Assembly (NCBI GenBank): GCA_028718635.1
Contig: JAQULK010000001.1
Span: forward strand, 543,834 to 607,833
Direction of reading: 5' to 3'
From: Minisyncoccota bacterium
GTDB taxonomy: Bacteria > Patescibacteriota > Minisyncoccia > Phycocordibacterales > UBA9973
Length of the DNA stretch: 64,000 nt
The notes beneath the pieces are model-generated. The model was not told the DNA's origin and made no database searches. It worked only from the letters and a program-made list of their open reading frames with translations. Positions within the stretch are counted from its first letter, which is position 1, and every line of letters starts with the position of its first letter. A program made the translations under genes and the position numbers. Shown piece after piece: positions 1 to 58,453 of the stretch.

Positions 1-429
1 ATTCGGACGTCCAACGTCCGTAGATCCACACCATGTGTATTTTGCTTCGCGTTCAATTAAAGATATTCCTAGGGTTTTAGTATCTTTAATCTTTAAATTT
101 ATATTCTTAATTCTTTTAAATTCATTCTGAAGCTCATTTTTAATGGTATTTTGAGGATAAATGAAAATATTAGTTTTCGGGAAAAGCCATATATATTTTC
201 CAGAAATTTTTTTATCTACCGCACTTTTTAATGTTTCTGTATCAAGAACCTTATTACCGACGATATCCACCTCACTAATATTTATATTTTTCAAACGGGA
301 AAGAAAAACAAGCAATATAAAAAACGCTAGAACCACTATCAATAAGATCAAAATCTTATTTAAAAAAACTTTGTGCCTTCTTTTTTTTAATTCTAAGAGG
401 CCCGGAGAATTTAAAACATTTCTTTTCAT
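1..429 (-). CDS. ftsQ: Cell division protein FtsQ/DivIB, N-terminal part; the gene runs off the window start
   Basis: My own reverse-complement translation from the ATG at 429-427 gives MKRNVLNSPGLLELKKRRHKVFLNKILILLIVVLAFFILLVF...VDIVGNKVLDTETLKSAVDKK...GISLIEREAKYTW, a basic N-terminus, a TM anchor and a POTRA-like segment typical of FtsQ. It is missing from the ORF track because no stop lies inside the window. Confidence 0.5.
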   Translation of the reverse strand, partial: MKRNVLNSPGLLELKKRRHKVFLNKILILLIVVLAFFILLVFLSRLKNINISEVDIVGNKVLDTETLKSAVDKKISGKYIWLFPKTNIFIYPQNTIKNELQNEFKRIKNINLKIKDTKTLGISLIEREAKYTWCGSTDVGRPN

Positions 430-499
430 CCCAGTACTAAAATTTTAAATTGTTAATATTAGTGGTCATTTATTCTACTCAAAAATTTAGTACGGGACA
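427..499. repeat. Type-A junction inverted-repeat element (arms CATCCCAGTACTAAAATTTTAAAT / CTCAAAAATTTAGTACGGGAC)
   Basis: It spans from the serS stop to the ftsQ start codon (CAT at 427-429 lies inside the left arm). Near-identical to the copy at 40407-40478. Confidence 0.75.
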
Positions 500-502
500 G
501 GT

Positions 503-1870
503 TTATTTAATGAATTCCCTACCACCCATATATTTGCGCAAAACTTCCGGAATTTTTATCGAACCATCGGCTTGTTGGTAATTTTCTACTATCATTATAA
601 GAGGCCTGCCGGAAAGAGCCGTATTGTTTAATGAATGGACAAATTTCAATTTGCCGTCATTATCGCGATAACGAATATTCAATCTGCGAGTTTGAAAATC
701 ATGGAAATAACTAGCGGAACCGGTTTCTCGGTAGGTATTTTCAGACGGCAACCAAGTTTCAATATCATATTTCTTTACTTGACCCAAGCCCAGATCCCCG
801 GCGCAATTTATAACTACATGATAAGGCAAACCTAAAGCTTCCATGATTTCTTCGGTATTCCGCTCGATCTCCTCATGAAACTTTACTGATTCTTCGTGAG
901 ATGCTTCACAAAGGACAACTTGCTCAAATTTATAAAACTCATGAACTCGAAGGATTCCTTTTGTATCTTTGCCATGACTTCCTGCCTCGCGACGAAATGC
1001 ATCAGAAAATCCAAGCATTTTTATCGGCAAATCTTTTTTTTCTAAAATTTCTCCCATATAATGTCCCATCATTGCGACCTCGGCCGTGCCAGAGAGATAC
1101 TCGCCATCTTGCGTCCTGTATAGATCTTCTTCTCCTTGAGGAAGATAACCAGTGCCTAAAAATACTTCTCGCTTTACTAAAGATGGAACTATCATCGGAA
1201 CAAAACCGTCTTTTTTAGAAAAGAAATCCTGCACAAACTGCCACAAGGCAAATTCTAATAACGCGCCATCACCCTTGAGAAAATATCCGCGAAAGCCGGC
1301 CACTTTTACACCTCGAACAATATCAACCATCCCGAGATTCTCCATGAGCTCAATGTGGTTTTTGGGAGTAAAATCAAATTTAGGAATTTCACCAAAAACT
1401 TTTACTTCTTTGTTTTCTGCGTCTGTTTTCCCTTCCGGTACAGACATATCTGGAACATTCGGCACTTGCACCATTATTTTCTGCCATTCTTCCATAGTAG
1501 TCTTTAATTTCTCTTCTTTAGCCTTGATGTCTTCTTTCACTGCGCGCATTTCCTCAATTAATTGAATTTTGGATGCTGGGTCCTGATCGCGAGATATGTC
1601 ATTCGAAACTCTATTTACTTCACTACGAAGTTCTTCCACTTCTTTGAGTTCTTTTAATCGGGTATCATCAAGCGCAATCAAAGCATCAATATCTATCTCA
1701 ATATTTTTTTTCTTCGCCCCCGCCTGCACGATATCTTTGTTTTCGCGAATAAATTTGATGTCTAGCATATTTTTATTATACACAAAAGTTGTTATAATGA
1801 AAAGCGCATAAATGATTTTAAGGAAACGTGTGGGTTCCCTGTCCTTTTGACTCCGAGGGCGCAGTTTCAA
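503..1870 (-). CDS. serS: Seryl-tRNA synthetase
   Basis: 455 aa with an N-terminal coiled-coil arm and a class II core (FRREAGSHGKDTKGILRVHEF, GSASYFHDFQTRRLNIRY) typical of SerRS. Confidence 0.9.
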   Translation of the reverse strand: MKLRPRSQKDREPTRFLKIIYALFIITTFVYNKNMLDIKFIRENKDIVQAGAKKKNIEIDIDALIALDDTRLKELKEVEELRSEVNRVSNDISRDQDPASKIQLIEEMRAVKEDIKAKEEKLKTTMEEWQKIMVQVPNVPDMSVPEGKTDAENKEVKVFGEIPKFDFTPKNHIELMENLGMVDIVRGVKVAGFRGYFLKGDGALLEFALWQFVQDFFSKKDGFVPMIVPSLVKREVFLGTGYLPQGEEDLYRTQDGEYLSGTAEVAMMGHYMGEILEKKDLPIKMLGFSDAFRREAGSHGKDTKGILRVHEFYKFEQVVLCEASHEESVKFHEEIERNTEEIMEALGLPYHVVINCAGDLGLGQVKKYDIETWLPSENTYRETGSASYFHDFQTRRLNIRYRDNDGKLKFVHSLNNTALSGRPLIMIVENYQQADGSIKIPEVLRKYMGGREFIK

Positions 1871-1896
1871 AAAATTATTTATGCGCTTTTCATTTC

Positions 1897-2757
1897 ATGC
1901 AAATTAAAAAACTGACAAAAAACAAATTTCCAAAAGCATTATTAGAAATTCCCCAACCGCCGGAAAATCTTTGGGTTATGGGGGAAATGCCCTCTCCTAA
2001 TTTAATACACCTCTGTGTAGTAGGCTCAAGAAAATTCACATCTTATGGGCGCGAATCCTGCGAAAAAATAATAGCAGGATTAAAAGGCTATCCGATAGTA
2101 ATCGTTTCTGGCTTTGCTATGGGTATAGACACCATAGCTCACAAAAAAGCGATGCAGGTAGGGCTCAAAACCTTAGTCTTCCCTGGTTCAGGATTATCGG
2201 ATGAAGCAATATATCCAAAAACAAATGTAAGACTCATAAGAGAAGTTATTGAAAACGGCGGATGCTTAATTTCGGAATTCGAACCTGACTTCAAGGCGAC
2301 GCAATGGAGCTTTCCGATGAGAAATAGGCTAATGGCTGGTATTTCAAAAGCAGTACTCATCATAGAAGCAGAAGAAAAATCAGGAACACTTATCACTGCA
2401 CGACTCACTACAGAGTACAATAGAGATTTATTGGTGGTGCCTGGTTCGATTTTTTCTCCAAACTCAAAGGGAGTAAATAAATTATTGCATCAAGGCGCGA
2501 CTCCCGTCACTTGCTCTGAAGATGTCCTTGAAGCGTTAGGCTTTGAGCTTCCTAAAGACAAAGAAAAACAGGCTAAATTGTTTTTAGACTTATCACCTGA
2601 TGAGAAAAAAGTCATCGATCTTTTACGCGAACCGATGCCTCGTGATGAATTGATCCGCTCTTTAAAAATGCCGACACCACATGCCAACGCACTGCTATCG
2701 GTGATGGAAATAAAAGGATTGATAAAAGAAGAAATAGGTGAAATAAGATTGGCCTAA
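1897..2757 (+). CDS. dprA: DNA processing protein DprA/Smf
   Basis: Rossmann-like DprA core VVGSRKFTSYGRESCEKIIAGLKGYPIVIVSGFAMGIDTIAHKKAMQVG. The start is trimmed to the internal Met (MQIKKL) so it does not overlap the divergent serS start. Confidence 0.8.
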   Translation: MQIKKLTKNKFPKALLEIPQPPENLWVMGEMPSPNLIHLCVVGSRKFTSYGRESCEKIIAGLKGYPIVIVSGFAMGIDTIAHKKAMQVGLKTLVFPGSGLSDEAIYPKTNVRLIREVIENGGCLISEFEPDFKATQWSFPMRNRLMAGISKAVLIIEAEEKSGTLITARLTTEYNRDLLVVPGSIFSPNSKGVNKLLHQGATPVTCSEDVLEALGFELPKDKEKQAKLFLDLSPDEKKVIDLLREPMPRDELIRSLKMPTPHANALLSVMEIKGLIKEEIGEIRLA

Positions 2758-2763
2758 TGTTTT

Positions 2764-3654
2764 CTATTTAATTTTTTTTCCATATTCATATGTGTGATTT
2801 TTATCAGCAGAAATATATTTTGAAATTAAATAAAATGTACTTGGATCAGCATCGGTTATTATTCCACTTTGTTCCCTTATTTCAAAGGCATTATTATAAA
2901 CATGATTTTTATCCTTGAAATAACATTCGGGTAATTTGGTAAATGTTTGAACATCAGCAACTTCTATTTTCTTACCACGATAATAGACACCACTCTTATC
3001 TTTATAAAAATCACATTCCAAAGATATAAAAGTTGCGGAATCAGCTCCCTTTAGTACCACTGCCGATTGAGGAATAGTGCCCTTAATATTACGAACAAGC
3101 TCCCCTCCAAAATAATAAACATTATGATTATCTTTAGCATAATGTTCACCTATAAACAAAAATGTTTTTGGGTCAGCACCATCAATAATATTTAATGCAC
3201 CTTCTCCTAAATTATCAACTCCTGCCATATACACATTTTTATTATCTTTTGAGTACAACCATGGGTTTATATCATTGACACCCATATTTTCAATTATTTT
3301 GAAAGATGTCGCATCAATCCCATTAAGTTTTTTTCCAAAATAAAAAACGGTTTTTTCATCCTTAGAATAAGGACTACCACTTATTATCTCAAAATGTATT
3401 GGATCAACGTCTATCTTTTTAACCAGCGGAATAAACTCAAAACACAGCAATGATCTACATCCTCCTCCTATTAAATAATCCTCATTACTATGGTAATATA
3501 TCGAAGAAAATCCTTTGTAATAATACTCACTAATGCTAATGCTCGAATCTATTTTTTCTTTCCCAAAGGAAGTTCTATTAATTAGAAACCATACACTAAA
3601 TGCTAAAAATACAATTACTATTAGTAAAACAGGAGTTCTAAGTATTTTTTTCAT
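2764..3654 (-). CDS. Secreted/membrane-anchored DKNYY-repeat protein
   Basis: N-terminal TM/signal segment (VLLIVIVFLAFSVWFLI). About 7 repeats of the motif Y(Y/F)xKDKNxVYY/GKK (DKNHVY, DNKNVY, DNHNVYYFGG, DKSGVYYRGKK, DKNHTYEYGKK), as in the DKNYY repeat family. Confidence 0.55.
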   Translation of the reverse strand: MKKILRTPVLLIVIVFLAFSVWFLINRTSFGKEKIDSSISISEYYYKGFSSIYYHSNEDYLIGGGCRSLLCFEFIPLVKKIDVDPIHFEIISGSPYSKDEKTVFYFGKKLNGIDATSFKIIENMGVNDINPWLYSKDNKNVYMAGVDNLGEGALNIIDGADPKTFLFIGEHYAKDNHNVYYFGGELVRNIKGTIPQSAVVLKGADSATFISLECDFYKDKSGVYYRGKKIEVADVQTFTKLPECYFKDKNHVYNNAFEIREQSGIITDADPSTFYLISKYISADKNHTYEYGKKIK

Positions 3655-3732
3655 AAATTTCTTTATTCATTGTCACATTAATCTAATCCTAGTTTCTTCA
3701 ATGATTTAGCATCTCAAATACTAAGTTATTTT

Positions 3733-3996
3733 TTAGAATTTCTTTCCCGAGTTAAATTCTATTTTCTCAACTCGCACAGTTAAATTTTCAATTCTTCTAT
3801 CGTAAGCAACATGATCGGTATATAAAGTAGAAATATTATCTCTAAAAGATTTACTGTCTTCGTGTATCGCTTTAATTTCTTTTAACATTATCTGCAAAAC
3901 ATCTTCTTGTCTTTTTAGATCCTTCTTTGTAGCCATTTTTTTCTCTAAACTTTCAAAACTATTATTCATCATAATAGCTAATTTATCTATTGTCAT
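3733..3996 (-). CDS. Small coiled-coil hypothetical protein
   Basis: ORF with a strong SD (AAGGTGGAAAAATG) before the internal Met (MTIDKLAIMM). No recognisable domain. Confidence 0.3.
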   Translation of the reverse strand: MTIDKLAIMMNNSFESLEKKMATKKDLKRQEDVLQIMLKEIKAIHEDSKSFRDNISTLYTDHVAYDRRIENLTVRVEKIEFNSGKKF

Positions 3997-4097
3997 TTTT
4001 CCACCTTTTTTAATCATTACTCAAGTATACCAATAACAAGATATTCGAGTCAAATTAAATTAATTTTTATATATTTTGAGTAAAAAATGAAACAAAA

Positions 4098-4137
4098 TTT
4101 GCAAAAAAAATATGTTTCGTGTAATACTTGGTGAGTT
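4098..4137 (+). promoter_or_regulatory. Candidate sigma70-like promoter for topA (TTGCAA-N18-TAATAC) followed by a GGTGAG SD
   Basis: Hexamer pattern read directly upstream of the topA ATG. Weak evidence only. Confidence 0.25.
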
Positions 4138-6417
4138 ATGAAATTATTAATTGTGGAATCACCATCAAAAGCAAAAACTATTGAGAAATATCTCGAAGGT
4201 GCCTTTACTGTGCGCGCGTCTGTCGGACATATTCGCGATTTGCCTAAATCAAACAAACAAGCCATAGACATCGAAGGCGGTTTTATTCCGCATTATGAAA
4301 TTTCAAAAGGTAAAGAAAAGATTGTGCATGAACTCCAAGGACTGGCAGAAAAAGCAAATGAAATACTTCTCGCGACAGACCCCGACCGTGAAGGAGAAGC
4401 CATCGCTTGGCACATAGAAACACTCCTTAATCAAGACCCCGAAGGAAAGAGTACTTCCTACGGGGCAAGTAAAAAAGTAAAAACTCCTATAAAAAGAGTA
4501 AGGTTTTACGAGATAACAAAAGATGCGGTACAAGAAGCTATAAAAAACCCAAGTGATATCGATCTGAAACTCGTTAAAGCTCAAGAAGCGCGCCGGGTGC
4601 TCGACAGGTTGGTAGGATATGATTTAAGCGGACTCATATGGAAAAAAGTGAGATACGGACTTTCTGCTGGCCGTGTCCAATCCCCTGCGCTTCGCATAAT
4701 AATGGAACGAGAACGCGAAATTCTAGCTTTTGTTCCTGAAAAATATTGGAAAATATTTGGATTATTTGAAACACCCAAAAAAGAGAAAATAACTCTAACT
4801 TGTTCCAAAGAGCCTCGAGAAGAAAAATTATTTGAAAAAATAATGACTGAAGGTAGAAAAGGTACTTGGATGGTAAAAGGAGTAAAAGAATCTGAGCAAA
4901 AACGTTCTCCTCGAGCGCCCTTTACCACTTCAACACTCCAGCAGACTGCCTCTTCGCGGCTTGGGTATTCCCCTTCGCGCACAATGCAAATAGCGCAAAA
5001 ACTTTATGAAGCAGGGCACATCACCTATATGCGAACAGACAGCACCAACCTTTCTGGTACTGCTCAAGCTCAAATAATATCATTTGTAAAAAAGGAATAT
5101 GGCAATAACTATGCGGAGGCACACACTTATAAGACAAAATCAAAAAATGCCCAGGAGGCGCATGAGGCTATCCGCCCTACACATATAGAGAAACTGTCTG
5201 CTGGGACAGATGACCAAAGCAAATTATACCGACTTATTTGGGAGCGCGCGGTTTCTTCACAAATGGCAGATGCCAAATTACTTAAAACTAAAATTACTGC
5301 AAATATAAATTCGGACGTTGGACGTCCGGTTTCCGGACGTCCAACGTCCGAATTACCCGATTTCACAGCGGTTGGCTCTCGTTTGCTTTTCCCCGGATGG
5401 CTAAGAGTCGACACTGGAGCGCGCGGTGAAGATGTGGAATTGCCTTTATGCAAAGAGGATGAAATTCTAAAACTTCTAGAACTAAAAGGAGAAGAAAAAT
5501 TTACCGAACCGCCTGGTAGATATTCTGAAGCGGGATTGATTAAAGAACTTGAGGCGAGAGGCATCGGCAGGCCTTCTACTTATGCATCAATAATGAGAAC
5601 CATCGAAACTAGAGGATATGTAAAAAAAGAAGGCAAAACGCTCTTTCCTACTGATGTCGGCGAAGTAGTATCGGATTTTTTAGAAAAACATTTTGCCAAT
5701 TATATCTCTGACACATTCACTGCTGAGATGGAGGACGAATTGGACGAAATATCCCGAGGCGAACGCGAATATGAAAAAACATTGAAAGATTTTTATATTC
5801 CTTTTTTGAAAGAAGTTAAATCAAAAGAAAAATTAGAAAAAGCAACCAACTTGGGCAATGCTCCGGAAAACATAAAATGCCCGAAATGCGGAGAGCCTAT
5901 GATTGTCAAGCTTTCACGCGGAGGAAAATTTTATTCTTGCTCGAAATATCCCGATTGCGAGGGAGCATTAATGCTCGACGGTACAGAATTAAAAGGTCCG
6001 GAAGAAACCGGTGAAATATGTCCTGAATGCGGAAACAAGAAAGGCAAATCCGGTGGAGGAAAATTGATAGTCAAACAAAGGCGCGATGGCACAGGCACAT
6101 TTATCTCCTGCTCGCGTTATCCTAAATGCAAATTTATCAAAAAAGATGAAGCTGAAGAAGCCAAAAAACGCACCGGTGTCATCTGTCCTGTTTGCAAAAA
6201 GGGAGATATCTCAGAGAGACGCGGACGTTTTGGAATATTTTATTCTTGTTCAAACTATCCTGATTGTAAATTCGCCATAAAGGCAAAACCTACCGGCAAC
6301 ATATGCAAGGAATGCGGAAGCTTGATGATGGAAGGCACAAAAACAATTCCTGAAAGATGTTCAAATAAAGCATGTAAAATACATAATCCTCATAAAATAC
6401 CCAAGATTGAAGCTTGA
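4138..6417 (+). CDS. topA: DNA topoisomerase I with four C-terminal C4 zinc ribbons
   Basis: 759 aa with a TOPRIM N-terminus (LLIVESPSKAKTIEKYLEG, ATDPDREGEAIAWH), active-site region (ITYMRTDST) and repeated C-terminal CPxCG...CxxYPxC zinc ribbons. A 43-nt palindrome is inserted in-frame at 5310-5352. Confidence 0.9.
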   Translation: MKLLIVESPSKAKTIEKYLEGAFTVRASVGHIRDLPKSNKQAIDIEGGFIPHYEISKGKEKIVHELQGLAEKANEILLATDPDREGEAIAWHIETLLNQDPEGKSTSYGASKKVKTPIKRVRFYEITKDAVQEAIKNPSDIDLKLVKAQEARRVLDRLVGYDLSGLIWKKVRYGLSAGRVQSPALRIIMEREREILAFVPEKYWKIFGLFETPKKEKITLTCSKEPREEKLFEKIMTEGRKGTWMVKGVKESEQKRSPRAPFTTSTLQQTASSRLGYSPSRTMQIAQKLYEAGHITYMRTDSTNLSGTAQAQIISFVKKEYGNNYAEAHTYKTKSKNAQEAHEAIRPTHIEKLSAGTDDQSKLYRLIWERAVSSQMADAKLLKTKITANINSDVGRPVSGRPTSELPDFTAVGSRLLFPGWLRVDTGARGEDVELPLCKEDEILKLLELKGEEKFTEPPGRYSEAGLIKELEARGIGRPSTYASIMRTIETRGYVKKEGKTLFPTDVGEVVSDFLEKHFANYISDTFTAEMEDELDEISRGEREYEKTLKDFYIPFLKEVKSKEKLEKATNLGNAPENIKCPKCGEPMIVKLSRGGKFYSCSKYPDCEGALMLDGTELKGPEETGEICPECGNKKGKSGGGKLIVKQRRDGTGTFISCSRYPKCKFIKKDEAEEAKKRTGVICPVCKKGDISERRGRFGIFYSCSNYPDCKFAIKAKPTGNICKECGSLMMEGTKTIPERCSNKACKIHNPHKIPKIEA
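5310..5352. repeat. 43-nt perfect palindrome TTCGGACGTTGGACGTCCGG-TTT-CCGGACGTCCAACGTCCGAA inserted in-frame in topA
   Basis: 20-bp arms with a 3-nt loop. It encodes SDVGRPVSGRPTSE in topA, and the antisense strand would read the same peptide motif. Confidence 0.85.
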
Positions 6418-6459
6418 AATAATATTTTCTAACTTTCACAAAGGTGCTATACTTTTAAG

Positions 6460-7941
6460 ATGGAAAATACAGTAGGAGATGTAAGAGAAATCATTGATCT
6501 CGTACAAGGAAAAATAAATAAAGAAGAGGAGGAACTTTTGCGCAAAGCCTATGATTTTGCGAAAAAAGCTCATGCGGGACAAAAAAGAATGAGCGGAGAA
6601 CCTTATTTTATTCATCCTTTTGAGACTGCAAAAATTTTAACTGGTCTTGGAATGGATATTCAAATCATCGTTGCTGGATTATTGCATGATGTATTAGAAG
6701 ATACTTCTATAACAGAAGATGCAATACAAAAAAATTTTGGTGATGATATTTTATTTTTAATCAAAGGTGTAACGAAATTAGGAACCTTAAAATACAGAGG
6801 ACATGAAAGGCATGTGGAATCTCTGCGTAAATTTTTTGTGGCGATAGCAAGCGATCTACGAGTAGTTATTATTAAATTTGCCGATAGATTGCACAACCTG
6901 CGCACTCTCGAATATGTGCGAGAAGATAAAAGAGCTCGAATAGCCATAGAATCTATCGAAGTTTACGCTCCCCTCGCAAACAGGCTCGGAATGGGAAAGC
7001 TCAAAGGCGAACTAGAGGATGCCGCTTTCCCATATGCTTTTCCAAAGGAGTACAAAGAGACAGAAGAAATATTTAAAGAAAAAAAAGGTCTTTATGAAAA
7101 AAACTTAAAAGAAGTGAATGAAAAATTACAAAAAGAATTAGAAAAAAACAAAATAAAATTTATAGAGATTGATTATCGGATAAAACACTTATACAGCTTA
7201 TATAAAAAACTTTTAAAATATGATATGGACATAGATAAGATCTATGACATCGTGGCGTTACGTGTGGTAGTTAATACTGTTGCAGATTGTTACCGAGTCT
7301 TGGGATTAATCCATTCTGTTTGGAATCCACTACCAGGAAGAATTAAAGATTTTATTTCTATTCCAAAACCAAACGGTTATCGTTCAATTCACACAACTGT
7401 TTTTACTGGTTTAGGAGGAGTAGCAGAAATTCAAATAAGGACAAAAGAAATGCATACTGAAGCAGCTTATGGTGTCGCTGCCCACTTTGTTTATAAAGAA
7501 AAAGGTGAAAATAAAATTAAAGGAAATAAAGAAAAATTTAAATGGATCGAAGAACTAAAAGAACTTAATTATTCTCCTGATGATCCAATAAAATTTATTG
7601 ACCATCTTAAGATGGATTTCTTTAATGATCGTATTTTTATCTTCACGCCTAAAGGGGATGTTATTGATTTGCCAGAAGATTCAAGCCCGATAGATTTTGC
7701 CTATTCGATACACACTGATATTGGAAATCATATTTTTGGAGCTAAAATAAACGGCAAAATGTCTCAAATTTTTACCAAATTAAGAAATGGAGATATTGTT
7801 GAAATAATAACCAAAAAAGATTCTAAACCTTCAGGCAAATGGCTGGAATATACTAAGACTTCCATTGCAAAGAAAAATATAAAATCCTATCTTGAAAAAA
7901 ATAGTCTTCTTTCTAAGCTCATGTCCTTCGGCCGTAGTTAA
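6460..7941 (+). CDS. Small RelA/SpoT homolog (HD hydrolase + (p)ppGpp synthetase + TGS domains)
   Basis: HD motif (LLHDVLEDT), synthetase motifs (GRIKDFISIPKPNGYRSIHTTV) and a TGS-like segment (FIFTPKGDVIDLPEDSSPIDFAYSIHTDIG). 493 aa, no ACT domain. Confidence 0.8.
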   Translation: MENTVGDVREIIDLVQGKINKEEEELLRKAYDFAKKAHAGQKRMSGEPYFIHPFETAKILTGLGMDIQIIVAGLLHDVLEDTSITEDAIQKNFGDDILFLIKGVTKLGTLKYRGHERHVESLRKFFVAIASDLRVVIIKFADRLHNLRTLEYVREDKRARIAIESIEVYAPLANRLGMGKLKGELEDAAFPYAFPKEYKETEEIFKEKKGLYEKNLKEVNEKLQKELEKNKIKFIEIDYRIKHLYSLYKKLLKYDMDIDKIYDIVALRVVVNTVADCYRVLGLIHSVWNPLPGRIKDFISIPKPNGYRSIHTTVFTGLGGVAEIQIRTKEMHTEAAYGVAAHFVYKEKGENKIKGNKEKFKWIEELKELNYSPDDPIKFIDHLKMDFFNDRIFIFTPKGDVIDLPEDSSPIDFAYSIHTDIGNHIFGAKINGKMSQIFTKLRNGDIVEIITKKDSKPSGKWLEYTKTSIAKKNIKSYLEKNSLLSKLMSFGRS

Positions 7942-7970
7942 CGTCCTACAGGCGAGGCCTTCGGACGTTC

Positions 7971-8966: not shown

Positions 8967-9147
8967 GAATTGATTTTAGCATGTTTTAGAAAATATAAAA
9001 AATTTATATAATCTTACAACTGATTTAGGGCAGATGTAAAATTGATTATTGTTGGAAAGAAATTAAATTGAGGGCCGTGCTCTTGGTTTAGACCTTCTTT
9101 TGGCAATACTTGTCATGCTCAATCCAAAATAAGGAAGGAGCATAAAA

Positions 9148-9537
9148 ATGAGAGACACGAATGATGAGAGGATTAGCAAAGCAGTATCGACCTTCGATCA
9201 CATCCTTTGGGAAAGTATTCTTAGGGCGTGTGGAATGGCAACTTCTAAAGCTTTCCAGCAAACAGGTCGTTCGGCGCGGGTAGTTTATTCAATCCCAGAC
9301 TTGGATCCCAACAGTGCTATTTACTCCGAAGGCATAGCCCAAGAAGTAAAGAGTTTTCTGATGTACAATCGACGCGTAAAGAAAATTGGTAAAAGATTGT
9401 ACAAACTCGATGAAGCTCTTAAATTATGTACTCATGAAAGTTATCGAATATTTTTGAAAAGAATATTCGGCGAACAACAAGAAAAAGAACTAGATTTCGT
9501 TCAGAAGCGAATCTACGAATTTCGTTTTCATGTTTGA
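9148..9537 (+). CDS. Hypothetical protein (129 aa) in a GC-richer islet with its own SD and terminator
   Basis: Strong SD AAGGAAGGAG 6 nt before the ATG, a terminator hairpin immediately downstream, and codon usage more GC-rich than the neighbours. No recognisable domain. Confidence 0.45.
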   Translation: MRDTNDERISKAVSTFDHILWESILRACGMATSKAFQQTGRSARVVYSIPDLDPNSAIYSEGIAQEVKSFLMYNRRVKKIGKRLYKLDEALKLCTHESYRIFLKRIFGEQQEKELDFVQKRIYEFRFHV

Positions 9538-17182: not shown

Positions 17183-17216
17183 AGCGAGCCCTGCCTGCCG
17201 GCAGGCAGGGCTCGCT
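17183..17216. repeat. 34-nt perfect GC-rich palindrome AGCGAGCCCTGCCTGCCGGCAGGCAGGGCTCGCT (GGCAGGCAGG family)
   Basis: Read directly, intergenic between the Cys-rich gene stop and the murG start. Related copies at 31036, 41562, 53768 and 57932. Confidence 0.8.
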
Positions 17217-32869: not shown

Positions 32870-33312
32870 TTAAGTAAAGCAAGTTCGAGCGCAGCTAGGG
32901 CAGCTTCTCCTCCGACATGGATTCTTTGCCTTGCTTGCTTGATATTATTTACCGTCAGCACCCCAAAACCGACGGGAATATTGTCTTCAATCATAACTTT
33001 CAGAACCCCTTCTTGCGCCATTTTGCAGACGTAATCAAAATGCGGAGTATCACCTTTTATAACACAACCTAAAGCAACAAGGAAATCATATTTTTTCGAT
33101 TTTGCCATTTTATGCAAAGCAAAAGGAATTTCTACAGACCCAGCGACAGACATTTTCTCAATATTTTTATCAGCAATATTGCAATTCTTCAGCATCTGAA
33201 GCGCGTTTTGCAAAAGAGGCTCCGTGATCTCGGAATTCCATCTAGCAACCACGATGCCGACTTTTAGGTTTTTTCCGTTTAAATATTTATATTTTTTATT
33301 TTTTATATGCAT
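32866..33312 (-). CDS. ribH: 6,7-dimethyl-8-ribityllumazine synthase
   Basis: [18 protein letters not shown] and the lumazine synthase core. The start is set at the ATG at 33312-33310, which lies inside the left arm of a junction repeat; the track ORF extends further to a GTG. Confidence 0.8.
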
Positions 33313-33394
33313 CCCGTACGAAATTATATTAACTTTGTAAATTGACCCATCCACAACACGAAATTTTATTAAAAAGATTTCGTACGGGATGCAT
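33309..33394. repeat. Type-A junction inverted-repeat element (arms ATGCATCCCGTACGAAAT / ATTTCGTACGGGATGCAT, 18-bp perfect)
   Basis: The right arm encodes the last 8 codons of ribE (YASRTKSF). The left arm contains the ribH ATG. Confidence 0.75.
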
Positions 33395-33950
33395 ATTTAG
33401 CCAGTATATCAAATTCCAAATTAACTTCATCTTCTTCTTTTTTAAATTTTAAATTTGTGTGTTTTAGGGTATACGGTAATATTTTTACAACAAATAAATC
33501 TTTGAGAACCTCGGCGACAGTCAGGCTTATGCCTTCTATCGCGATCGATCCCTTATAAACCAAAAATTTTTTGAATTTTTTATCAGAAACCTTTATATAA
33601 AATTCTTTAGAATTTCCTTCTTTTTTTATGCTGATAATTCTGCCTTTTCCATCAATATGCCCGAGCACTAGGTGCCCGTCGAGCCTGTCGGACAAACGCA
33701 TTGATTGCTCAAGATTCACAATGTCGCCTTTCTTCAAGAGTCCTAAATTTGTAAGTTTTAGTGTTTCTGGCATATATTCAAATGAAATATTTTTGTTATT
33801 TTTTTTAACAGTGGAACAAACGCCATTGATAGAAATACTTTCTCCTAATTTTATTTTTCCTAAATTATTTAAAATATCAACAAAAAGACCGCCTTGCGCA
33901 GATTTTACTCTTTTCACTTTTGAAGTTTTTTTTATTATGCCTGTGAACAT
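33369..33950 (-). CDS. ribE: Riboflavin synthase alpha subunit
   Basis: MFTGIIKKTSKV...GESISINGVCSTV with the duplicated lumazine-binding barrel. Confidence 0.8.
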   Translation of the reverse strand: MFTGIIKKTSKVKRVKSAQGGLFVDILNNLGKIKLGESISINGVCSTVKKNNKNISFEYMPETLKLTNLGLLKKGDIVNLEQSMRLSDRLDGHLVLGHIDGKGRIISIKKEGNSKEFYIKVSDKKFKKFLVYKGSIAIEGISLTVAEVLKDLFVVKILPYTLKHTNLKFKKEEDEVNLEFDILAKYASRTKSF

Positions 33951-50225: not shown

Positions 50226-50240
50226 AACATTATTCGACTA

Positions 50241-51755: not shown

Positions 51756-51849
51756 AACTAGATATATTTTAGCATAATTTAGGCTTAATTACATTCAAAA
51801 ATAAAATTTTCTATAAAACTAGACGACCGCATTGTTTTATAGTATGAAA

Positions 51850-53586
51850 TTAATATACCTCCTGCTGATAGCATTTTTCACAATACACTATCTCAGGCCG
51901 ATCTGGAGCATAACTCGTCTCAAATTCTACTTCGCATTTTTTAGTTCCGTGAGAATGATTGGTCTTGTCGCACATACACTGCCTGTGCCAAAGTTTTAAT
52001 GGATTAACTTTTTTAAATCTCTCCTGATGCCTGCACTCAAAACATTTTCTAGGCAATGGCAACTTAAATTTTTTCAAAAAAAGATATTCGTTTTGAATAA
52101 TTTTATAAGGTCTTTTGCAGGAAGCGCATTCAATAACTAAATTAATGATATCCTCCTCAGTATTATTGATATGATCTGGTAAATCCTTCGCTTCACAAGT
52201 AGCACTGTATTCTGGTTTGGCCTTCTCGATATAGTTGTAACCTTCATTTAAAATATTTTCCTTAGAAAATGGAAAATAATCTTGCGCAACGGTTTCATTA
52301 TAACCAAAAGGAGAAAGCTCTATTGGAAAATATTCACCATAAGAATATGAATTCCCCTTTTTATCAAAATAAGGCACCTTCGCCATCTGCTCAATAATCT
52401 GTAACCGTAATTCTTCAAATTTTTCTTTAGAATACTGTTTGTTAAAAATACAATAACTTTTATTTCGAAGACCTACACAACCAAAAATATTATTACAACC
52501 ATGACAATTAAAACAATATTCAGCATTTAAACACTCCCAAACTGTTAAGGTGAATAATTGTCTAGACCCATAAACCCCAGAATCCATAGCCTCATAAATC
52601 AATTCTGATTTTTCTCCCGTACCATAAGCGTCATAACTATCTTTTTCACCATTAACCGCGTTAATCACATATTTACAATCTTTCATATCATCTTGAATGG
52701 CAAAGCAATGATGACAATTTTTGGCATGAAAAATATCATCTCCAGAAACATCGACAGAATTTATAATGTTAGCAAATCTTCTGATGGTCTTTAATTTTAG
52801 CTTTTCAAATTCTTCGCTTACTTTTTTAAAATTTTCAAAATTTCCGAGATCTAATTCTTTAAGCTTTTTATCGTACTCTTCTTTGGTCAATTGAACATTC
52901 CACATACAATTAGACTTATTGCGGAGACCAGTGCAACCAAAACAATTTATGCAGTTTTTGCAATCGTAAAGAAAATATGAGCTAGTGCAAGAGTCTGCAT
53001 TATGAGAAAAAAAGGTTTCATAACATTTCAAGGAAGAAACATCTTCATAACAGAATTCGCAATCCTTTACTGTAAACATATCCATGCAATCTTTGCAGGA
53101 ATTGGCGCGCGAGGAATAAGAAATATTCTCGCCTATCCAAGATGCCGATACAAGAAAGGAATTTCTGAATTCGCCGATATAATTGCCATAGGAAGTATTG
53201 ACGCATCTTCCGATAAAAAGGTTTGGTTGAGGAGTTTTTTCCAACAACTCTCGAAATTGCTCAAAGAATAGCCTATTAAAATCATATTCTAAACCATAGT
53301 CCAAAGGATCCCACTCATCGCTCCACCAGATATCTCTCTCATAAATAGTAAATGGGGAATCCGATGAAAAACAACTGATCAGACTCTTGCCAGTTTTTGC
53401 GCATTTATTCCTGTGCAACGCACGTTCGTTTCGCCAAGCAAAACGCCTTTGCATTCGACAATCAGAACAAAAAGTAGGCGGTGGCACTTTTATTTTTTCG
53501 TAAAAATTAAAATCTTCTTGTTCTATCAGAAAATTTTGTTTACAATTTTGACAATTTTTTGTTTCTGCATTCATAAAATTTCTCAA
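51850..53586 (-). CDS. Cysteine-rich paralog family protein, copy 6 (578 aa), between the two ATPase paralogs
   Basis: Family signature at both termini (CQNCKQNFLIEQEDFNFYEKIKVPPPTFCSDCR ... CEVEFETSYAPDRPEIVYCEKCYQQEVY). Confidence 0.85.
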   Translation of the reverse strand: MRNFMNAETKNCQNCKQNFLIEQEDFNFYEKIKVPPPTFCSDCRMQRRFAWRNERALHRNKCAKTGKSLISCFSSDSPFTIYERDIWWSDEWDPLDYGLEYDFNRLFFEQFRELLEKTPQPNLFIGRCVNTSYGNYIGEFRNSFLVSASWIGENISYSSRANSCKDCMDMFTVKDCEFCYEDVSSLKCYETFFSHNADSCTSSYFLYDCKNCINCFGCTGLRNKSNCMWNVQLTKEEYDKKLKELDLGNFENFKKVSEEFEKLKLKTIRRFANIINSVDVSGDDIFHAKNCHHCFAIQDDMKDCKYVINAVNGEKDSYDAYGTGEKSELIYEAMDSGVYGSRQLFTLTVWECLNAEYCFNCHGCNNIFGCVGLRNKSYCIFNKQYSKEKFEELRLQIIEQMAKVPYFDKKGNSYSYGEYFPIELSPFGYNETVAQDYFPFSKENILNEGYNYIEKAKPEYSATCEAKDLPDHINNTEEDIINLVIECASCKRPYKIIQNEYLFLKKFKLPLPRKCFECRHQERFKKVNPLKLWHRQCMCDKTNHSHGTKKCEVEFETSYAPDRPEIVYCEKCYQQEVY

Positions 53587-53647
53587 CTCGCCTCACCCCT
53601 TGCTTTCCCCTCTCCATTACTATGGAGAGGGGCTGGGGAGAGGTTTT

Positions 53648-55792
53648 CTATTCTAAAATTTTTCTTAAAACATCTTCTGGTACTTCCCTCGGCTGTAGCC
53701 CTCCTACGGGCGAAGCTGGTGTTTTTGGCTTTTGGGGAGTTTCTTCCCCTCCTTGTGAAGGAGGGGTGCCTGCCTGCCGGTCAGGCAGGGCTTCAGCCGG
53801 GGTGGTGATTTTTTTCGTAATCAAATCTTTTAATTTATTCATATTTTCCGGAGTAGCTGCGCGGTCAACACCTATTGGACTGACAGGCTTTTTTACTTCC
53901 CTCGGCTGTAGCCCGCCTATGGGCGAAGCTTGCATTTTATTTTTTAGAGAATCAAGTGAAATGGGAGTAGGTGTGGAAACAGGCGTTGGTGTGGATTTAG
54001 TTTCTTCTACTACTACTTTATTTAAAACTTCTCTTAATGCTGAATTGTCCCCATTTACTCGTTTCACAGGAGCTCCACTAATGCGAGCTGGATAAACGGG
54101 TTTGACTTTAACTGGAACTTTTTTAGTAAAAACTTTTTTTATAGACTTAAATACACTAGGCTTGCTTGCTAAAGCAATATCTTTTTCTCCTCTTTCTTGA
54201 TATCTATGTTCTTCTTCAACTCCTCCATTCTTTTGTTTAAATTCTATACCTAAATCAGCCAATGGTTTATAAAATTTAGATTCATCATACTTAATTTGAT
54301 CTTGCCCCCTTTTTTCCACCTTAACTTCTCCAGATTTTATTTTTGCTATACATTCCTTACAATAAACTGCTCGGCCTGGTTCAGGCTTGAAAGGTACCGT
54401 CTTTTCTAACTTACAAAGAGAACAAATTACGGGAAACTTTTCCAAATTTCCATTTCCGTTAGTGTCAGGATAATTGCCCAAGGACATTCCGCTCCAGTTA
54501 TTGATTTCTCTTTCCACTGCCTCGCGAGGCCTACAATAAAGATCCCGGGATGATTTTATTACCTCTTCTTCTATTTTTTTATTACCCGACTTTACTATCG
54601 GAGGCAAAGTCCTAGCGGAAAATGGACGGGAGGTCACGCCATCGATCATCAACTTCAGATAAATTTTATAGTTTGGCAAGTTTACAATATCAGAAGGAGT
54701 GAATTCTGGATCAAATTCTTTTTCTAAAAAGTCTGCATCGTCCGAGCCGACCCTAAAAACTATCATTGTGCCGACGTTACCAAAAACAGCATCACGCACC
54801 GCAGAACTCTTATCAGAAATAAGTTGCGCAGTGTACTGGTGCGCCACCGTCAAATTCAGCCTGTATTTTCTAGCTTCAGACAAAATACCCGCAAAAGCAT
54901 CCGTCACAAAGTTTTGGAATTCGTCGACATAAAGGTAAAAGTCTTTGCGGTATTCCTCAGGGATGCGCACTCGTTCCATCGCGGCTAGTTGAATCTTGGT
55001 AATGATCATTCCTCCTAATAGCCCGGAATTGTCTTCACCGATTCGTCCCTTGGAAACATTCACGAGAAAAATCTTCCCGTCATTCATAATGTCGAAAATG
55101 TTGATCGTACTTACAGATTGGCCGACGACATTGCGGATAATCGAGGTCGAAAGAAATTGCCCGACTTTGTTTTGAATCGGCGCGATGGCCTCATTTCTGA
55201 ATTTATCCTGCCAAGCTTCATACTCATGGACCCAGAAGGCTTTTATAACCGGATCTTTTAGATTAGAAATTATTTTCTGGCGGTAATCTTTGTCTACAAG
55301 CATTCGGGGAATTCCAAGCAGGGTCGTTCCCGGAGTATCGAGCAATGCCAAAATACAATTATTTAAAATATATTCCATTCGGGCACTCCAAGCGTTCGCC
55401 CAGATTTTCGTAAAAATACCCATGAGTCCGGACGCTACCAGATGCTTATATTGCGGATCAATTAATTCCAAAACATTAAAACCGATATGATAATCCGTGT
55501 CTGCCGGATTAAAATAAACTACATCTTTCATTCGCTCCGGCGGAATAGCAGAAAGGACGCCTTCGACGAGTTCTCCGTGCGGATCGACTACGCAGACTCC
55601 TTCGCCGTTCTGAATATTCTGAACTATCATATTAAACATCAAGGCAGATTTACCGGTACCGGACTTTCCGAGAATATAAACATGCTGACGCCTGTCCTTG
55701 CGTTTGATGCCAAAGAGTTGATTTTTGTCGCGAAAAGATGTGAGCCCAAGATAAGTAATATCTCTATTTTTTGGTATTTCTGGCAGTTCCAT
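53648..55792 (-). CDS. TraD/VirD4-like P-loop ATPase, paralog 2, with C-terminal zinc ribbon and Pro-rich repeat tail (714 aa)
   Basis: The N-terminal ~440 aa are homologous to paralog 1 (ILGKSGTGKS, LYVDEFQNFV, EARKYRLNLTVAHQY). This is followed by CSLCK...YCKECIAK and a tandem SPIGGLQPREV-containing tail. An in-frame GC palindrome lies at 53768-53791. Confidence 0.6.
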   Translation of the reverse strand: MELPEIPKNRDITYLGLTSFRDKNQLFGIKRKDRRQHVYILGKSGTGKSALMFNMIVQNIQNGEGVCVVDPHGELVEGVLSAIPPERMKDVVYFNPADTDYHIGFNVLELIDPQYKHLVASGLMGIFTKIWANAWSARMEYILNNCILALLDTPGTTLLGIPRMLVDKDYRQKIISNLKDPVIKAFWVHEYEAWQDKFRNEAIAPIQNKVGQFLSTSIIRNVVGQSVSTINIFDIMNDGKIFLVNVSKGRIGEDNSGLLGGMIITKIQLAAMERVRIPEEYRKDFYLYVDEFQNFVTDAFAGILSEARKYRLNLTVAHQYTAQLISDKSSAVRDAVFGNVGTMIVFRVGSDDADFLEKEFDPEFTPSDIVNLPNYKIYLKLMIDGVTSRPFSARTLPPIVKSGNKKIEEEVIKSSRDLYCRPREAVEREINNWSGMSLGNYPDTNGNGNLEKFPVICSLCKLEKTVPFKPEPGRAVYCKECIAKIKSGEVKVEKRGQDQIKYDESKFYKPLADLGIEFKQKNGGVEEEHRYQERGEKDIALASKPSVFKSIKKVFTKKVPVKVKPVYPARISGAPVKRVNGDNSALREVLNKVVVEETKSTPTPVSTPTPISLDSLKNKMQASPIGGLQPREVKKPVSPIGVDRAATPENMNKLKDLITKKITTPAEALPDRQAGTPPSQGGEETPQKPKTPASPVGGLQPREVPEDVLRKILE

Positions 55793-55816
55793 ATAGTTAT
55801 TATTTTACAACAAAAT

Positions 55817-55851
55817 CACAAAAACAAAAAGCCCCTTGAAGGGGCTTTTTG
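55817..55851 (-). terminator. Rho-independent terminator downstream of dnaK (AAAGCCCC-TTGAA-GGGGCTTT, T-runs on both strands)
   Basis: 8-bp GC-rich stem. The minus-strand transcript continues into TTTTTGTTTTTG. Confidence 0.65.
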
Positions 55852-55854
55852 TAG

Positions 55855-57759
55855 TTACGCCTTAGGCTCTTCGCCTTCAGGACCTTTTTCTTTAAACTCA
55901 GCGTCTTTGACTTCGGCTGGTTGTTCTTCGGGAGTTCCAGCTGGAGGAGTTTCGGTCCCTGCCTTTGCCATTGCTTCTCCTATCTTAGACATTTCAGCAG
56001 AAAGTTCTTCAGTGGCTTTTTTGATCGCCTCTCCATCGGTGCCATCTTTCACCCCTCGCAACGCAGTTATCTTTGCATTCACTTCATCTTTTAATTCTGC
56101 AGGAATTTTTGCTTCATTGTCTTTGAGCGCTTTTTCTGCAGTGTAAATTATCATCTCTGCAGTGTTTTTCACTTCTGCATTTTCTTTCTTTTTCTTATCC
56201 TCTTCAGCATGAAGCTCTGCATCAGCTTGCATTTTCTTGATGTCTTCTTCCTTGAGCCCGGAACTGGCTTCGATTTTAATTGATTGAGTTTTTCCAGATG
56301 CTTTATCTTTTGCAGAAACGTTTAGGATTCCATTTACATCCACATCAAAAGCAACTTCAATCTGGGGCATGCCACGAGGAGCTGGTGGAACTCCATCTAA
56401 AATAAATCGGCCTAGAGATTTGTTGTCAGATGCCATCGGGCGTTCTCCTTGCACAATATGTATTTCTACAGAAGTTTGATTGTCAGCAGCAGTAGAAAAT
56501 GTTTGGGACTTACTCGAAGGAATAGTGGTATTTCTTTCAATTAATTTTGTAGCCACTCCTCCTAAAGTCTCAATCCCTAAGGATAGAGGAATCACATCCA
56601 GAAGCAACACATCACGAACATCCCCTTGCAACACGCCTGCTTGGACGGCTGCACCGAGCGCCACGACTTCATCAGGGTTAATAGACATATTTGGAACTTT
56701 GCCGAAAAGATTTTGTACTGCAGAAACTATGGCTGGCATTCTCGTCTGACCGCCCACCATGATAATTTCATTAATTTCATTCATCTTAAATGGAGAAGCG
56801 GAAAGAGCTCTTTTAGTAATTTCAATGGATCGATCTATGTATTCCTTAGCAAGAGATTCCAACATCGCACGAGACATCTTGAGCAATAAATGCTTTGGAC
56901 CAGAAGCATCAGAAGTAATAAAAGGAATATTTATTTCAGTTTCCGTAGTGGTAGAAAGTTCATGCTTAGCTTTTTCGGCAGCTTCTTTTAGTCTTTGGTG
57001 CGCCAGAGGATCTTTGATCACATCAATACCAGATTCTTTTTTATATTCTTCAGCTATCCACCCTATTATTTTTCTATCAATATCCCCTCCGCCCATATGG
57101 CTGTCTCCATCGGTGGATTTAACTTCAATAACGTCATCGCCTATTTCTAATACAGACACATCAAAAGTTCCTCCGCCGAAATCGTAAACAACTATCTTTT
57201 CATTTTTCTTTTTATTAAATCCATAAGCAAGCGCTGCAGCCGTTGGTTCGTTGATGATACGCTTTACATCGAGCCCAGCGATAGCTCCTGCATCTTTGGT
57301 CGCTTTTCTTTGGGCATCATTAAAATATGCTGGAACTGTTATTATAGCCTCAGTAATTTTTTCTCCTAACTTTGCTTCAACGTCGGCTTTTATTTTTTGT
57401 AGAATAATCGCGGAAATTTCTTCTGGTCGATAAAACTTATCTGCCATTTTTATTTTTACTCCGCCTCCATCTCCCGCTTCAATTTTAAATGAAGCTGTTT
57501 CGCGATCCTTTTGCACTTCTGGATCATCAAATCGATGTCCCATATAGCGTTTTATTTCAGCAATGGTGTTTTCTGGATTTGTAACCGCTTGTCTTTTTGC
57601 TAAAAGGCCGACGATGCGATCTCCATTTTTTGCAGTCGCTACGACAGAGGGTGTCGTACGATTGCCTTCTACATTCTCTATAATCTTCGGTGCACCGCCT
57701 TCAATGACAGCTACTGCCGAATTTGTTGTTCCTAAATCTATACCTATTATTTTTGACAT
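55855..57759 (-). CDS. dnaK: Chaperone DnaK (Hsp70)
   Basis: [35 protein letters not shown] Hsp70 signatures; 634 aa. Confidence 0.95.
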
Positions 57760-57857
57760 ATATTTTATAAGGTTAATTTATAATTTTTAATAATTTACTA
57801 ATATTTCGCGACCACTAAAAACTTGTATAAACAGAGTATATATGATAACATATATCC

Positions 57858-58406
57858 ATGTCAAGTTATTCAAGAAAAATACTTAAAAAACTAGCCGAAA
57901 GACCGGCAATTTCCGTGGAAGATTTAAAAGACCTGCCTGCCATGCCTACCGGCAGGCAGGCCGGCGAGGCAGGAAATGATACTAAAACAACCTATGCTAT
58001 TTCTCGCGCCTTAAAAAATTTAGTGGAAGGCAAATATGCAGAAATTCATGAATCCGGAAGGCAAGATTACGTAAAAATTACTCCTCTTGGAAAAAATAAA
58101 TTAAACACGTTGCTCTTGGAAAATGAGAGTGTGCTGGTCCCACAAAATTGGGATGGATTTTGGAGAATTATTTTGCTTGATCTTCCTGAAAGTAGAAAAA
58201 GTGAGCGCGAATCTTTACGCTACCTTTTAAAAAAAGCTGGCTTTGTCTGTCTAAAAAATTCTGCTTGGATTTCTCCCTTCCCTTTTGAACATTTGTTTGC
58301 GAACATAAAAAAAGATCTCGGGCTCACCACCGAGATAATGATCATCGTCACTGAAAATATAGACAACGAAAGTAAAAAAGTTTTATTTGAAAGTTTTGGA
58401 AAGTAG
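57858..58406 (+). CDS. PaaX-like winged-helix regulator family protein (182 aa), opposite strand within the chaperone/Cys-rich cluster
   Basis: C-terminal WDGFWRIILLDLPESRKSERESLRYLLKKAGFVCLKNSAWISP matches the PaaX-type C-terminal domain. The N-terminus carries an in-frame GC palindrome insertion (LPAMPTGRQAGEAGN). Confidence 0.45.
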   Translation: MSSYSRKILKKLAERPAISVEDLKDLPAMPTGRQAGEAGNDTKTTYAISRALKNLVEGKYAEIHESGRQDYVKITPLGKNKLNTLLLENESVLVPQNWDGFWRIILLDLPESRKSERESLRYLLKKAGFVCLKNSAWISPFPFEHLFANIKKDLGLTTEIMIIVTENIDNESKKVLFESFGK

Positions 58407-58412
58407 TAGCAG

Positions 58413-58453
58413 CAGACGTTGGACGTCTGGGAATCTTGACGTCCAACGTCTGT
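58413..58453. repeat. GACGTTGGACGTC-family inverted repeat (CAGACGTTGGACGTC-N11-GACGTCCAACGTCTG)
   Basis: 15-bp perfect arms, intergenic between convergent stops. Related copies at 1-25, 5310-5352 and 7940-7970. Confidence 0.75.

Follow-up and report, generated by a model that had tools for sequence, protein, structure and literature searches.

The association of REPs (repetitive extragenic palindromic sequences), and of the hairpin-forming doublets that they make (REPINs), with REP-associated tyrosine transposases (RAYTs) has been described for Pseudomonas and Escherichia coli (Bertels & Rainey 2011; PMC3116915, PMC3337134). Di Nocera, De Gregorio & Rocco 2013 (PMC3733652) have reported REPs with GTAG or CGTC tags that lie within genes, often genes of replication and repair; these intragenic REPs include RPE-4 and RPE-6 of Rickettsia conorii and the REPs of Opitutus terrae, and the CGTC REPs have no dedicated transposase. 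Here we analysed a stretch of 64,000 nt (the window) from a Minisyncoccota bacterium (contig JAQULK010000001.1, positions 543,834 to 607,833 of the forward strand), in which a short palindromic repeat with the 13-nt core GACGTTGGACGTC lies in frame in topA and in an ftsQ-like gene. We believe it likely that the GACGTTGGACGTC elements are a REP/REPIN-type family of Paceibacteria (Patescibacteria) with a RayT-like transposase. A literature search found nothing describing REPs, RAYTs or palindromic elements in the candidate phyla radiation (CPR)/Patescibacteria; what is new here is a REP family and a RayT-like partner in a new phylum, in an unusual, mostly intragenic setting, intragenic REPs themselves being already known.

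Several features of the family recall the REP/REPIN-RAYT systems of E. coli and Pseudomonas fluorescens: the short GC-rich hairpin units, found as singlets and inverted doublets; the multi-copy, genome-specific populations; insertion without target-site duplication; a single-copy HUH/Tyr transposase gene placed between its own hairpins, with related transposases next to other hairpins; and a predicted transposase fold that matches the RayT-REP complex 4er8. It differs from them in that the doublet measures ~45 nt, against inter-REP spacings of 71 and 110 bp in SBW25, and in its location: REPINs are by definition extragenic, but over half of the present copies lie in frame within genes. The flanks show no evident GTAG tag, the transposase (~220 aa, with a C-terminal helical extension) is a distant one that scores under the NCBIfam equivalog cutoff, and the host has an ultra-small Patescibacteria genome. 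The intragenic GTAG and CGTC REPs resemble the present family in that singlets and dimers within ORFs encode extra residues and head-to-head dimers dominate. They belong, however, to other phyla and have other sequences; CGTC is here part of the stem and not an unpaired terminal tag, the repeat brackets a RayT-like gene, unlike the CGTC REPs, and the intragenic fraction is far higher.

The window contains five exact matches to the core, at 6-18(-), 5314-5326(+), 5336-5348(-), 58415-58427(+) and 58438-58450(-), against 0.32 expected from shuffles, and none of 100 shuffles reached five. They make up three copies, two of them inside genes. The copies and their host genes are:

5308..5354, no strand: copy in topA, a full REPIN-like doublet or nested palindrome with 22-nt arms (5308-5329 and 5333-5354) and the loop TTT

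1..25, minus strand: copy cut by the window edge, comprising the left arm and the first bases of the loop; it keeps the frame of the ftsQ-like ORF (...CGSTDVGRPN)

58413..58452, no strand: intergenic doublet of the subfamily with CA...TG flanks, with 15-nt perfect arms and a 10-nt loop

4138..6417, plus strand: topA, host gene, encoding a type IA topoisomerase of 759 aa (Pfam Toprim, Topoisom_bac and zf-C4)

1..429, minus strand: ftsQ-like host ORF, with the N-terminal 143 aa inside the window and continuing past its left edge

A preliminary description of this DNA had claimed four copies; these three are real, and the fourth (7940-7970) belongs to another element family, treated below. The topA copy is a perfect palindrome, as had been noticed, although it extends over 47 nt in total, with a 3-nt loop, and not over the 43 nt (5310-5352) first assigned to it. 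It lies in frame and translates to NSDVGRPVSGRPTSE, and the antisense frame across it does read GNSDVGRPETGRPTSEFI. That the two strands give the same peptide is true and trivial, since a perfect palindrome has no orientation, and it is the reading phase that matters instead. The copy at 1-25, which reads TCTACG-GACGTTGGACGTC-CGAAT... on the minus strand, was rightly seen as truncated by the window edge and in frame, and the third copy, also correctly described apart from its end at 58452, occupies the 50-nt spacer of the convergent ORFs 57858-58406(+) and 58457-60184(-). The ftsQ-like ORF has a weak match to the FtsQ-type POTRA_1 domain (22.2 bits versus a cutoff of 23) and one transmembrane segment (judged by eye from the translation), and its orthologs are found in conserved synteny upstream of serS-dprA-topA; dprA adjoins topA in the window (1828-2757).

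Each arm is a 17-nt hairpin, CGGACGT-TGG-ACGTCCG, and two inverted arms give a palindrome of palindromes. Across the family the unit is a hairpin of 17-19 nt with the stem (C)RGACGT/ACGTCY(G) and the loop TGG (CGGACGTTGGACGTCCG being the hairpin type of the GACGTTGGACGTC family), and its usual form is an inverted doublet able to make a 20-24-bp hairpin in single-stranded DNA; some copies are perfect palindromes without any loop, and singlets and tail-to-tail doublets are also present. There were 91 doublets and 25 solo arms in the scanned loci, which had been selected for doublets. Among 87 copies from other genomes the loops were mostly 9, 12 or 10 nt long and the pairing of the arms continued for 5-6 nt past the core through variable sequence, with paired fractions of 0.94, 0.89, 0.75, 0.68, 0.53 and 0.45 outward from the core and then background. 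Folded as RNA, the topA copy gave -42.2 kcal/mol (z = -9.9), a single arm -9 kcal/mol and the copy at 58413-58452 -31.2 kcal/mol (z = -6.5), and no stop codon interrupts the element in any of the six frames. Whatever boundary was assumed, no consistent direct repeat showed up, and the element, which is one palindrome throughout, is not built like a miniature inverted-repeat transposable element with its terminal inverted repeats and target-site duplication. A search of Rfam gave no family match, only generic hairpin matches below threshold.

An exact-pattern scan of one genome per species, covering 185,579 species, returned 82 loci, all in Patescibacteria metagenome-assembled genomes (MAGs). 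By a count of the listed rows these are ~30 MAGs, labelled Paceibacterota, Nomurabacteria and in some cases "Saccharibacteria", and the four richest genomes carry 7-14 loci each. In viral contigs the pattern had 0 matches, that is, carriage by phages was not seen. The 502 kb around topA in 80 metagenomic relatives held a single doublet, which shows that the family is patchy. As to the labels, that of "Saccharibacteria" looks wrong for L008, L002, L005 and other such loci; the TopA of L008, which bears it in its title, is 82% identical to the window TopA, and L023 shows the relA-parB junction.

The evidence for a dedicated enzyme came from the loci richest in repeats. A first screen of 5,114 ORFs (1.15 Mb) with the TnpAs of IS608, ISDra2 and Sulfolobus (two) and with E. 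coli RayT, by phmmer and a 4-sequence hidden Markov model, gave no match, a null that was a false negative, as the Pfam Y1_Tnp model later found genes. In a second search the loci with clustered arms were examined and the ORF between the arms was taken. In CAZKWN01, JARLIG01, CAWHSF01 and JBAYFP01, which by our own count are the four genomes with most loci, this arm-bracketed ORF matches Y1_Tnp at or above the gathering score of 23 bits (the four scores being 24.0, 26.4, 23.0 and 23.5 bits), so that a transposase bracketed by the repeat is found in four related genomes (L014, L034, L045 and L080). A doublet stands ~90-130 nt upstream of the start of each of these genes, and a further doublet, or an arm, comes just past the stop; the gene is single-copy and in conserved synteny. 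The chance of all four falling at random in the sampled 8-kb loci is ~1e-4, an estimate for a genome of ~800 kb with 7-14 loci in each genome. With the first (L034) the four proteins share 71-81% identity, and they display an HUH motif (NPNHFHF), a QGRF motif and the tyrosine motif YVNINH, which are conserved in 55 homologs. Their sole NCBIfam match is NF047646, REP-associated tyrosine transposase (25-30 bits), and hhalign set the catalytic motifs in register with those of E. coli RayT. An AlphaFold2 model built from the 55 homologs (predicted local distance difference test score, pLDDT, 81.3; predicted template modelling score, pTM, 0.80) had as its best PDB matches in Foldseek IS608 TnpA (2a6m) and the E. 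coli RayT-REP complex (4er8), with a probability of 1.0 each. We conclude that the transposase is a distant RayT subfamily. It has at least 6,907 homologs; the named ones among 120 listed are from Patescibacteria-type MAGs, and some have already been called RayT by the automated annotation of JGI and NCBI. Many RayT-like genes (P0125-P0136 and others) are on contigs of 0.8-3 kb, which would fit assemblies breaking at flanking repeats.

The hairpins next to the gene differ among genomes. Orthologous transposases of 64-67% identity and the same synteny are flanked by other hairpins, namely TAGACGTCCAACGTCTA singlets in L167, (C)GTCGGGTGT-tgg-ACACCCGAC in L168 and L169, and CCAGGTATC-c-GATACCTGG in L170, and the flank unit of L168 and L169, TCGGGTGT-tgg-ACACCCGA, is also present in frame in the TopA loop of L092. 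A 35%-identical paralog (L019:1-650), bracketed by GTTAAACAC-TCG-GTGTTTAAC as read from the sequence by eye, is in CAWHSF01, a genome that also holds the GACGTTGGACGTC-associated gene. A further observation concerns the DnaA-box 9-mer TTATCCACA (or TGTGGATAA), which lies ~7 nt outside the hairpins that bracket RayT-like genes, across hairpin families (L034:1005-1030; the 5' flank of L080:3078-3761; L045:2100-3100; L169:2168-2205). Of 89 dispersed copies, 13 (L077, L058 and L041 among them) also have it next to or inside them, and it occurs within the 21-nt loops of the JBAYFP01 copies; the background of the 8-mer TTATCCAC/GTGGATAA is 0.11 per kb. The 9-mer could be a cleavage or guide site of the transposase, or a real DnaA box.

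Comparison with orthologs confirmed that the repeat is an insertion in both host genes, with filled and empty states at the same loops. The 120 closest TopA orthologs (81-90% identity) have a modal length of 738 aa and mostly lack the peptide. Among 63 metagenomic topA loci with both anchors, 46 have a SQM...-...FPGW segment of 36-38 residues and 17 carry extra sequence, in most cases other perfect GC-rich palindromes of 43-49 nt in which each arm is again a small palindrome. Seven alleles (the window, L061, L164, L165, L166, L008 and L012) have a member of the GACGTTGGACGTC family in the linker, at differing positions within 4-5 residues and with differing flanks, loops and subfamilies, while their nearest empty alleles are 84-92% identical; other relatives have at least eight unrelated hairpin families in the same linker. 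All carriers use the same palindromic DNA, third-codon positions included, and the peptide was not found encoded by non-palindromic DNA. The peptide stretch of TopA at the insert is DVGRPVSGRPTSE; E. coli TopA shows a 13-residue gap at this position (in the stretch TLTVGAG-DF...RLKARG), which, from the E. coli structure, we take to be the turn of the beta hairpin of domain II. In all, 72 topA genes contained 31 long palindromes versus 3 in a codon-shuffled control; the insert loop accounts for 20 of the 31 and a second spot, near residue 212-214, for 9.

At the loop WCG...CYF of FtsQ, L036 (55% identity) holds the complete element, L164 a palindrome collapsed to 20 nt and L061 a hairpin of another family, while L166, L159, L012 and L024 have no insert. 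The collapsed copy fits a deletion between the GGACGTC direct repeats within the nested palindrome. The evidence for mobility thus consists of the filled and empty orthologous sites plus this one collapsed copy, and the proposal that a dispersed, selfish-type palindrome is tolerated in frame in essential genes is supported. As a full account, a single ancient insertion in TopA is disfavoured, since the linker positions and subfamilies differ and the loop also takes unrelated families. DNA uptake sequences (DUS), or uptake signal sequences (USS), are short motifs that arise by point substitution in existing sequence and add no length; the present copies do not fit this, being ~45-nt insertions relative to orthologs.

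At the second hot spot of TopA (residue ~212-214, window numbering), a AAGGCAAGACCTTAAGGGAGCCCAAGGTCTTGCCTT family, encoding the peptide KRQDLKGAQGLAL, is found in L084, L087, L090, L110, L129 and L166; L161 has another palindrome, and L024 a GACGTTGGACGTC copy in another phase. The window topA itself has a second palindromic insert at 4437-4465 (CCCCGAAGGAAAGAGTACTTCCTACGGGG, peptide PEGKSTSYGAS), common to few orthologs (P0062, P0056, P0052) and lacking in most.

Copies inside genes almost always keep the reading frame. Of 89 copies assessed under the requirement of 40 or more open codons on each side, 49 are internal to long ORFs and in frame; at 7 more, two long ORFs in different frames abut, and these are most simply read as tandem-gene junctions. 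The internal copies use the three phases in the proportion 37:2:10 (p = 1e-9), the 37 being those that read DVGR...RPTS, and the bias holds per independent host site (23:2:6; n=31; p = 6e-6), no site mixing phases and each of the 12 sites occupied in more than one genome (12/12) keeping a single one. The surviving gene copies are, then, in frame, stop-free, biased in phase and confined to few variable loops. Since ~94% of the window is open reading frame from stop to stop, genes are under-hit per base, though they hold half of the copies.

Within the element the constraint is on the core. Between the window and L061, 155 of 289 four-fold sites of topA differ (54%), against 1 of 12 inside the element; in our own breakdown of the codon table these are 0 of 7 in the core and 1 of 5 outside it. 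The alleles of L164-L166, which were recognised by peptide alone, have exact cores, and in orthologous copies the loops and outer stems vary freely. As judged from these sequence comparisons, what is conserved is the core as a DNA sequence, not the peptide.

Three other systems share part of this picture. Like the RPEs, which are ~105-150 bp long (Ogata et al. 2000 as reviewed in PMC10969869, PMC3184786), the GACGTTGGACGTC elements are palindromic repeats inserted in frame into unrelated protein-coding housekeeping genes of a small, AT-rich, host-dependent bacterium; the RPE positions are apparently compatible with protein folding as well. Size (~45 nt) and host, all 82 loci being in Patescibacteria, set the present family apart. 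We know of no enzyme that mobilises RPEs. The mitochondrial GC clusters (the byps of Magnusiomyces, yeast var1) are also short GC-rich palindromes of an AT-rich genome, among them in-frame insertions in coding regions, with fast-evolving loops and with clusters that merge and shuffle. They live in an organelle, however, have no Y1 transposase and carry terminal AG/TAG repeats that are read as target duplications, of which none was seen here. The insertion sequences of the IS200/IS605 group (IS608, ISDra2) share the HUH/Tyr catalytic core and fold, the recognition of hairpins and duplication-free insertion, but the repeats described here are not the ends of an insertion sequence carrying the gene, which sits in fixed synteny as RAYTs do.

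Taken together, these data point to a RayT-like HUH/tyrosine enzyme (Y1, IS200/IS605 superfamily) that would recognise the hairpin in single-stranded DNA. Action on single-strand hairpins without target-site duplication is the known mode of IS608 TnpA and E. coli RayT, and by analogy with them the enzyme may move or copy the hairpin without such a duplication; one is probably encoded elsewhere in the window's own genome. As these genomes are ~90% coding, most landing sites would be inside genes. Selection would then retain the inserts that are stop-free and a multiple of three in length, that are in the phase giving, on translation, a Gly/Pro/Ser/Arg-rich peptide, DVGR(P/L)...(G/R)RPTS, and that fall in variable surface loops, such as the turn of the TopA domain-II hairpin and the FtsQ loop between two cysteines. 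With propagation limited to copies that can be recognised, the 13-nt core would stay exact and the loops and outer stems would drift, and copies may be lost through deletion between the direct repeats inside the nested palindrome.

Several observations weigh against this interpretation. REPs are by definition extragenic, and 49 of the 89 copies are intragenic; a GTAG tag is not evident at the end of the repeat, the consensus of the core-adjacent flank being T-n-C-R, and CTAC/GTAG is seen by eye in a minority of the listed copies (an impression, no count). The 25-30 bits obtained with the NCBIfam RayT model do not reach its equivalog cutoff of 80, and the hhalign alignment is weak (E = 0.019). 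Neither the cognate transposase nor its synteny block was found within the 64-kb window. Among the scanned genomes the nearest, JBAZSZ01 (L061), gave one exact doublet only, and with so few the copies of the window lineage may be relics. Lastly, the same loops are hit recurrently with one phase per site across genomes, a pattern that old insertions spread by homologous recombination could give without fresh transposition.

That last point is the substance of the explanation that competes best, according to which copies at orthologous sites are old or single insertions that homologous recombination or natural transformation has passed between related lineages (biased gene conversion, homing-like), a transposase being needed only for rare founding events. 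The single phase of each of the 12 multi-genome sites agrees with it, as do the sharing of orthologous sites at 53-93% host identity, the position of dprA next to topA, the lack of target-site duplications and the case of L165, in which the linker flanks (ANL...IPDFTANG) are like those of the L083 type, yet the gene is closest to L095. We nevertheless consider it unlikely. The seven TopA alleles have differing linker positions and genome-specific subfamilies (for example, the 21-nt-loop type of JBAYFP01), and at least eight unrelated families occupy the same loop. Divergence between the window and L061 restarts right beside the element, so there is no long recombination tract, and the dispersal of many copies to non-homologous genes within one genome is left unexplained.

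The exactness of the core across species with near-saturated synonymous sites could also mean that the elements are selected by the host as cis-elements, that is, binding sites for proteins or structural DNA signals (gyrase/topology, replication, DnaA titration) that lie in genes because intergenic space is scarce. The DnaA-box 9-mer beside or inside 13 of 89 copies, and beside those that flank the transposase, would suit such a role, and E. coli REPs have been reported as gyrase targets (PMC3733652). Recognition by a transposase, however, accounts equally for the conservation of the core, and at every site examined presence and absence differ among close relatives. The patchy distribution (one doublet per 502 kb of relatives), the many unrelated sequences in the same loops and the existence of collapsed and decayed copies likewise make selection by the host decidedly improbable.

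Much less probable still is that the palindrome is kept at the RNA level as an mRNA hairpin that influences stability or termination, causes pausing or is processed by RNase III. Folding predictions do give highly stable RNA hairpins (-42 and -31 kcal/mol), one copy lies between convergent genes, and REPs elsewhere are thought to be active in transcripts (PMC3733652). However, in 52 coding copies the sense strand has 16 stem mismatches of the G:U type and 15 of the A:C type, and the lack of asymmetry between them indicates that stem symmetry is a property of the DNA and not of the mRNA. Several copies are, besides, loop-free perfect palindromes, Rfam has no matching family, and a 22-bp duplex within an essential ORF would be a liability.

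Finally, it is scarcely credible that the inserts go untranslated, being bypassed or excised like the byps of Magnusiomyces mitochondria, or that they relate to restriction-modification through GACGTC: GC-rich palindromic clusters in coding regions can be bypassed in a yeast mitochondrion (PMC8811140) and 5 of the 7 GACGTC sites of the window are within copies, but skipped inserts would have no need of frame, freedom from stops or phase bias, and bypass elements are unconstrained in frame and stops, where the present family has 49 internal copies that keep the frame against 7 ambiguous tandem-gene junctions; the 2 GACGTC sites outside copies versus ~6.9 expected represent a depletion that is ordinary for hexamer palindromes here, so the restriction target once suggested finds no support. 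A number of hexamer palindromes are strongly depleted in the window relative to base composition: GGGCCC occurs 0 times (2.2 expected), CACGTG once (6.9 expected), GTTAAC and TACGTA 2 times (21.6 expected) and ACATGT 3 times (21.6 expected), the last being the core of another hairpin family among the TopA inserts.

Other palindromic inserts accompany the GACGTTGGACGTC family. That at 7940-7970 does fill an unusually long relA/parB spacer, as the preliminary description had it, but it is not a member of the family: its stem measures no more than 7 nt (AACGTCC/GGACGTT), and shuffled sequences fold just as well (z = -1.05). It is a different short insert, as the relA/parB spacer of L023 shares its 21-nt centre, CCTACAGGCGAGGCCTTCGGA, and that of L107 does so less closely. 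The two genes have a 4-nt overlap or a gap of 0-9 nt in most relatives, and their junction has inserts in several lineages (window 7942-7970, L023, L107, L083, L085, L087 and L090). CCTA(C/T)AGGCGAGGCC is common to the junctions of the window, L023 and L107, and there is a 66-nt palindrome in L083 and L085 and a 32-nt one in L087. Elsewhere in the window, a 34-nt perfect palindrome (17183-17216) is built on CCTGCCTGCC/GGCAGGCAGG, and another of this type (57932-57975) is in frame in the PaaX-like ORF 57858-58406, with the peptide LPAMPTGRQAGEAG; related LPAGRQ/GLPAEALAKAG peptides are inserts in TopA orthologs. Families of inverted repeats are found at 431-496, 40411-40475 and 33305-33396; the inverted repeat CCRGTACTAAAATTT...AAATTTAGTACGGG occurs twice in the window and a ATATGCATCCCGTACGAAATT... 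pair, with 28-nt arms, once.

If the GACGTTGGACGTC elements are a REP/REPIN-type family with a RayT-like transposase, it is conceivable, although we hold it improbable, that the system is retained and not just tolerated; a transposase held at a constant syntenic place in very small genomes would seed stop-free hairpin cassettes in a few permissive loops of essential proteins (TopA domain II, FtsQ) and be a repeated source of loop variation, and a system retained in this way might couple to replication via the DnaA-box-like TTATCCACA beside the hairpins that flank the transposase. Be that as it may, REPs are defined as extragenic, and this is a mostly intragenic, in-frame hairpin family tied to a bracketed transposase of RayT type. 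Its hosts are candidate-phyla bacteria with genomes of ~0.7 Mb, in which the inserts lengthen and vary conserved marker proteins in Patescibacteria MAGs, and the family offers a tractable case for how repeats enter reading frames and for why few protein loops take them up over and over.

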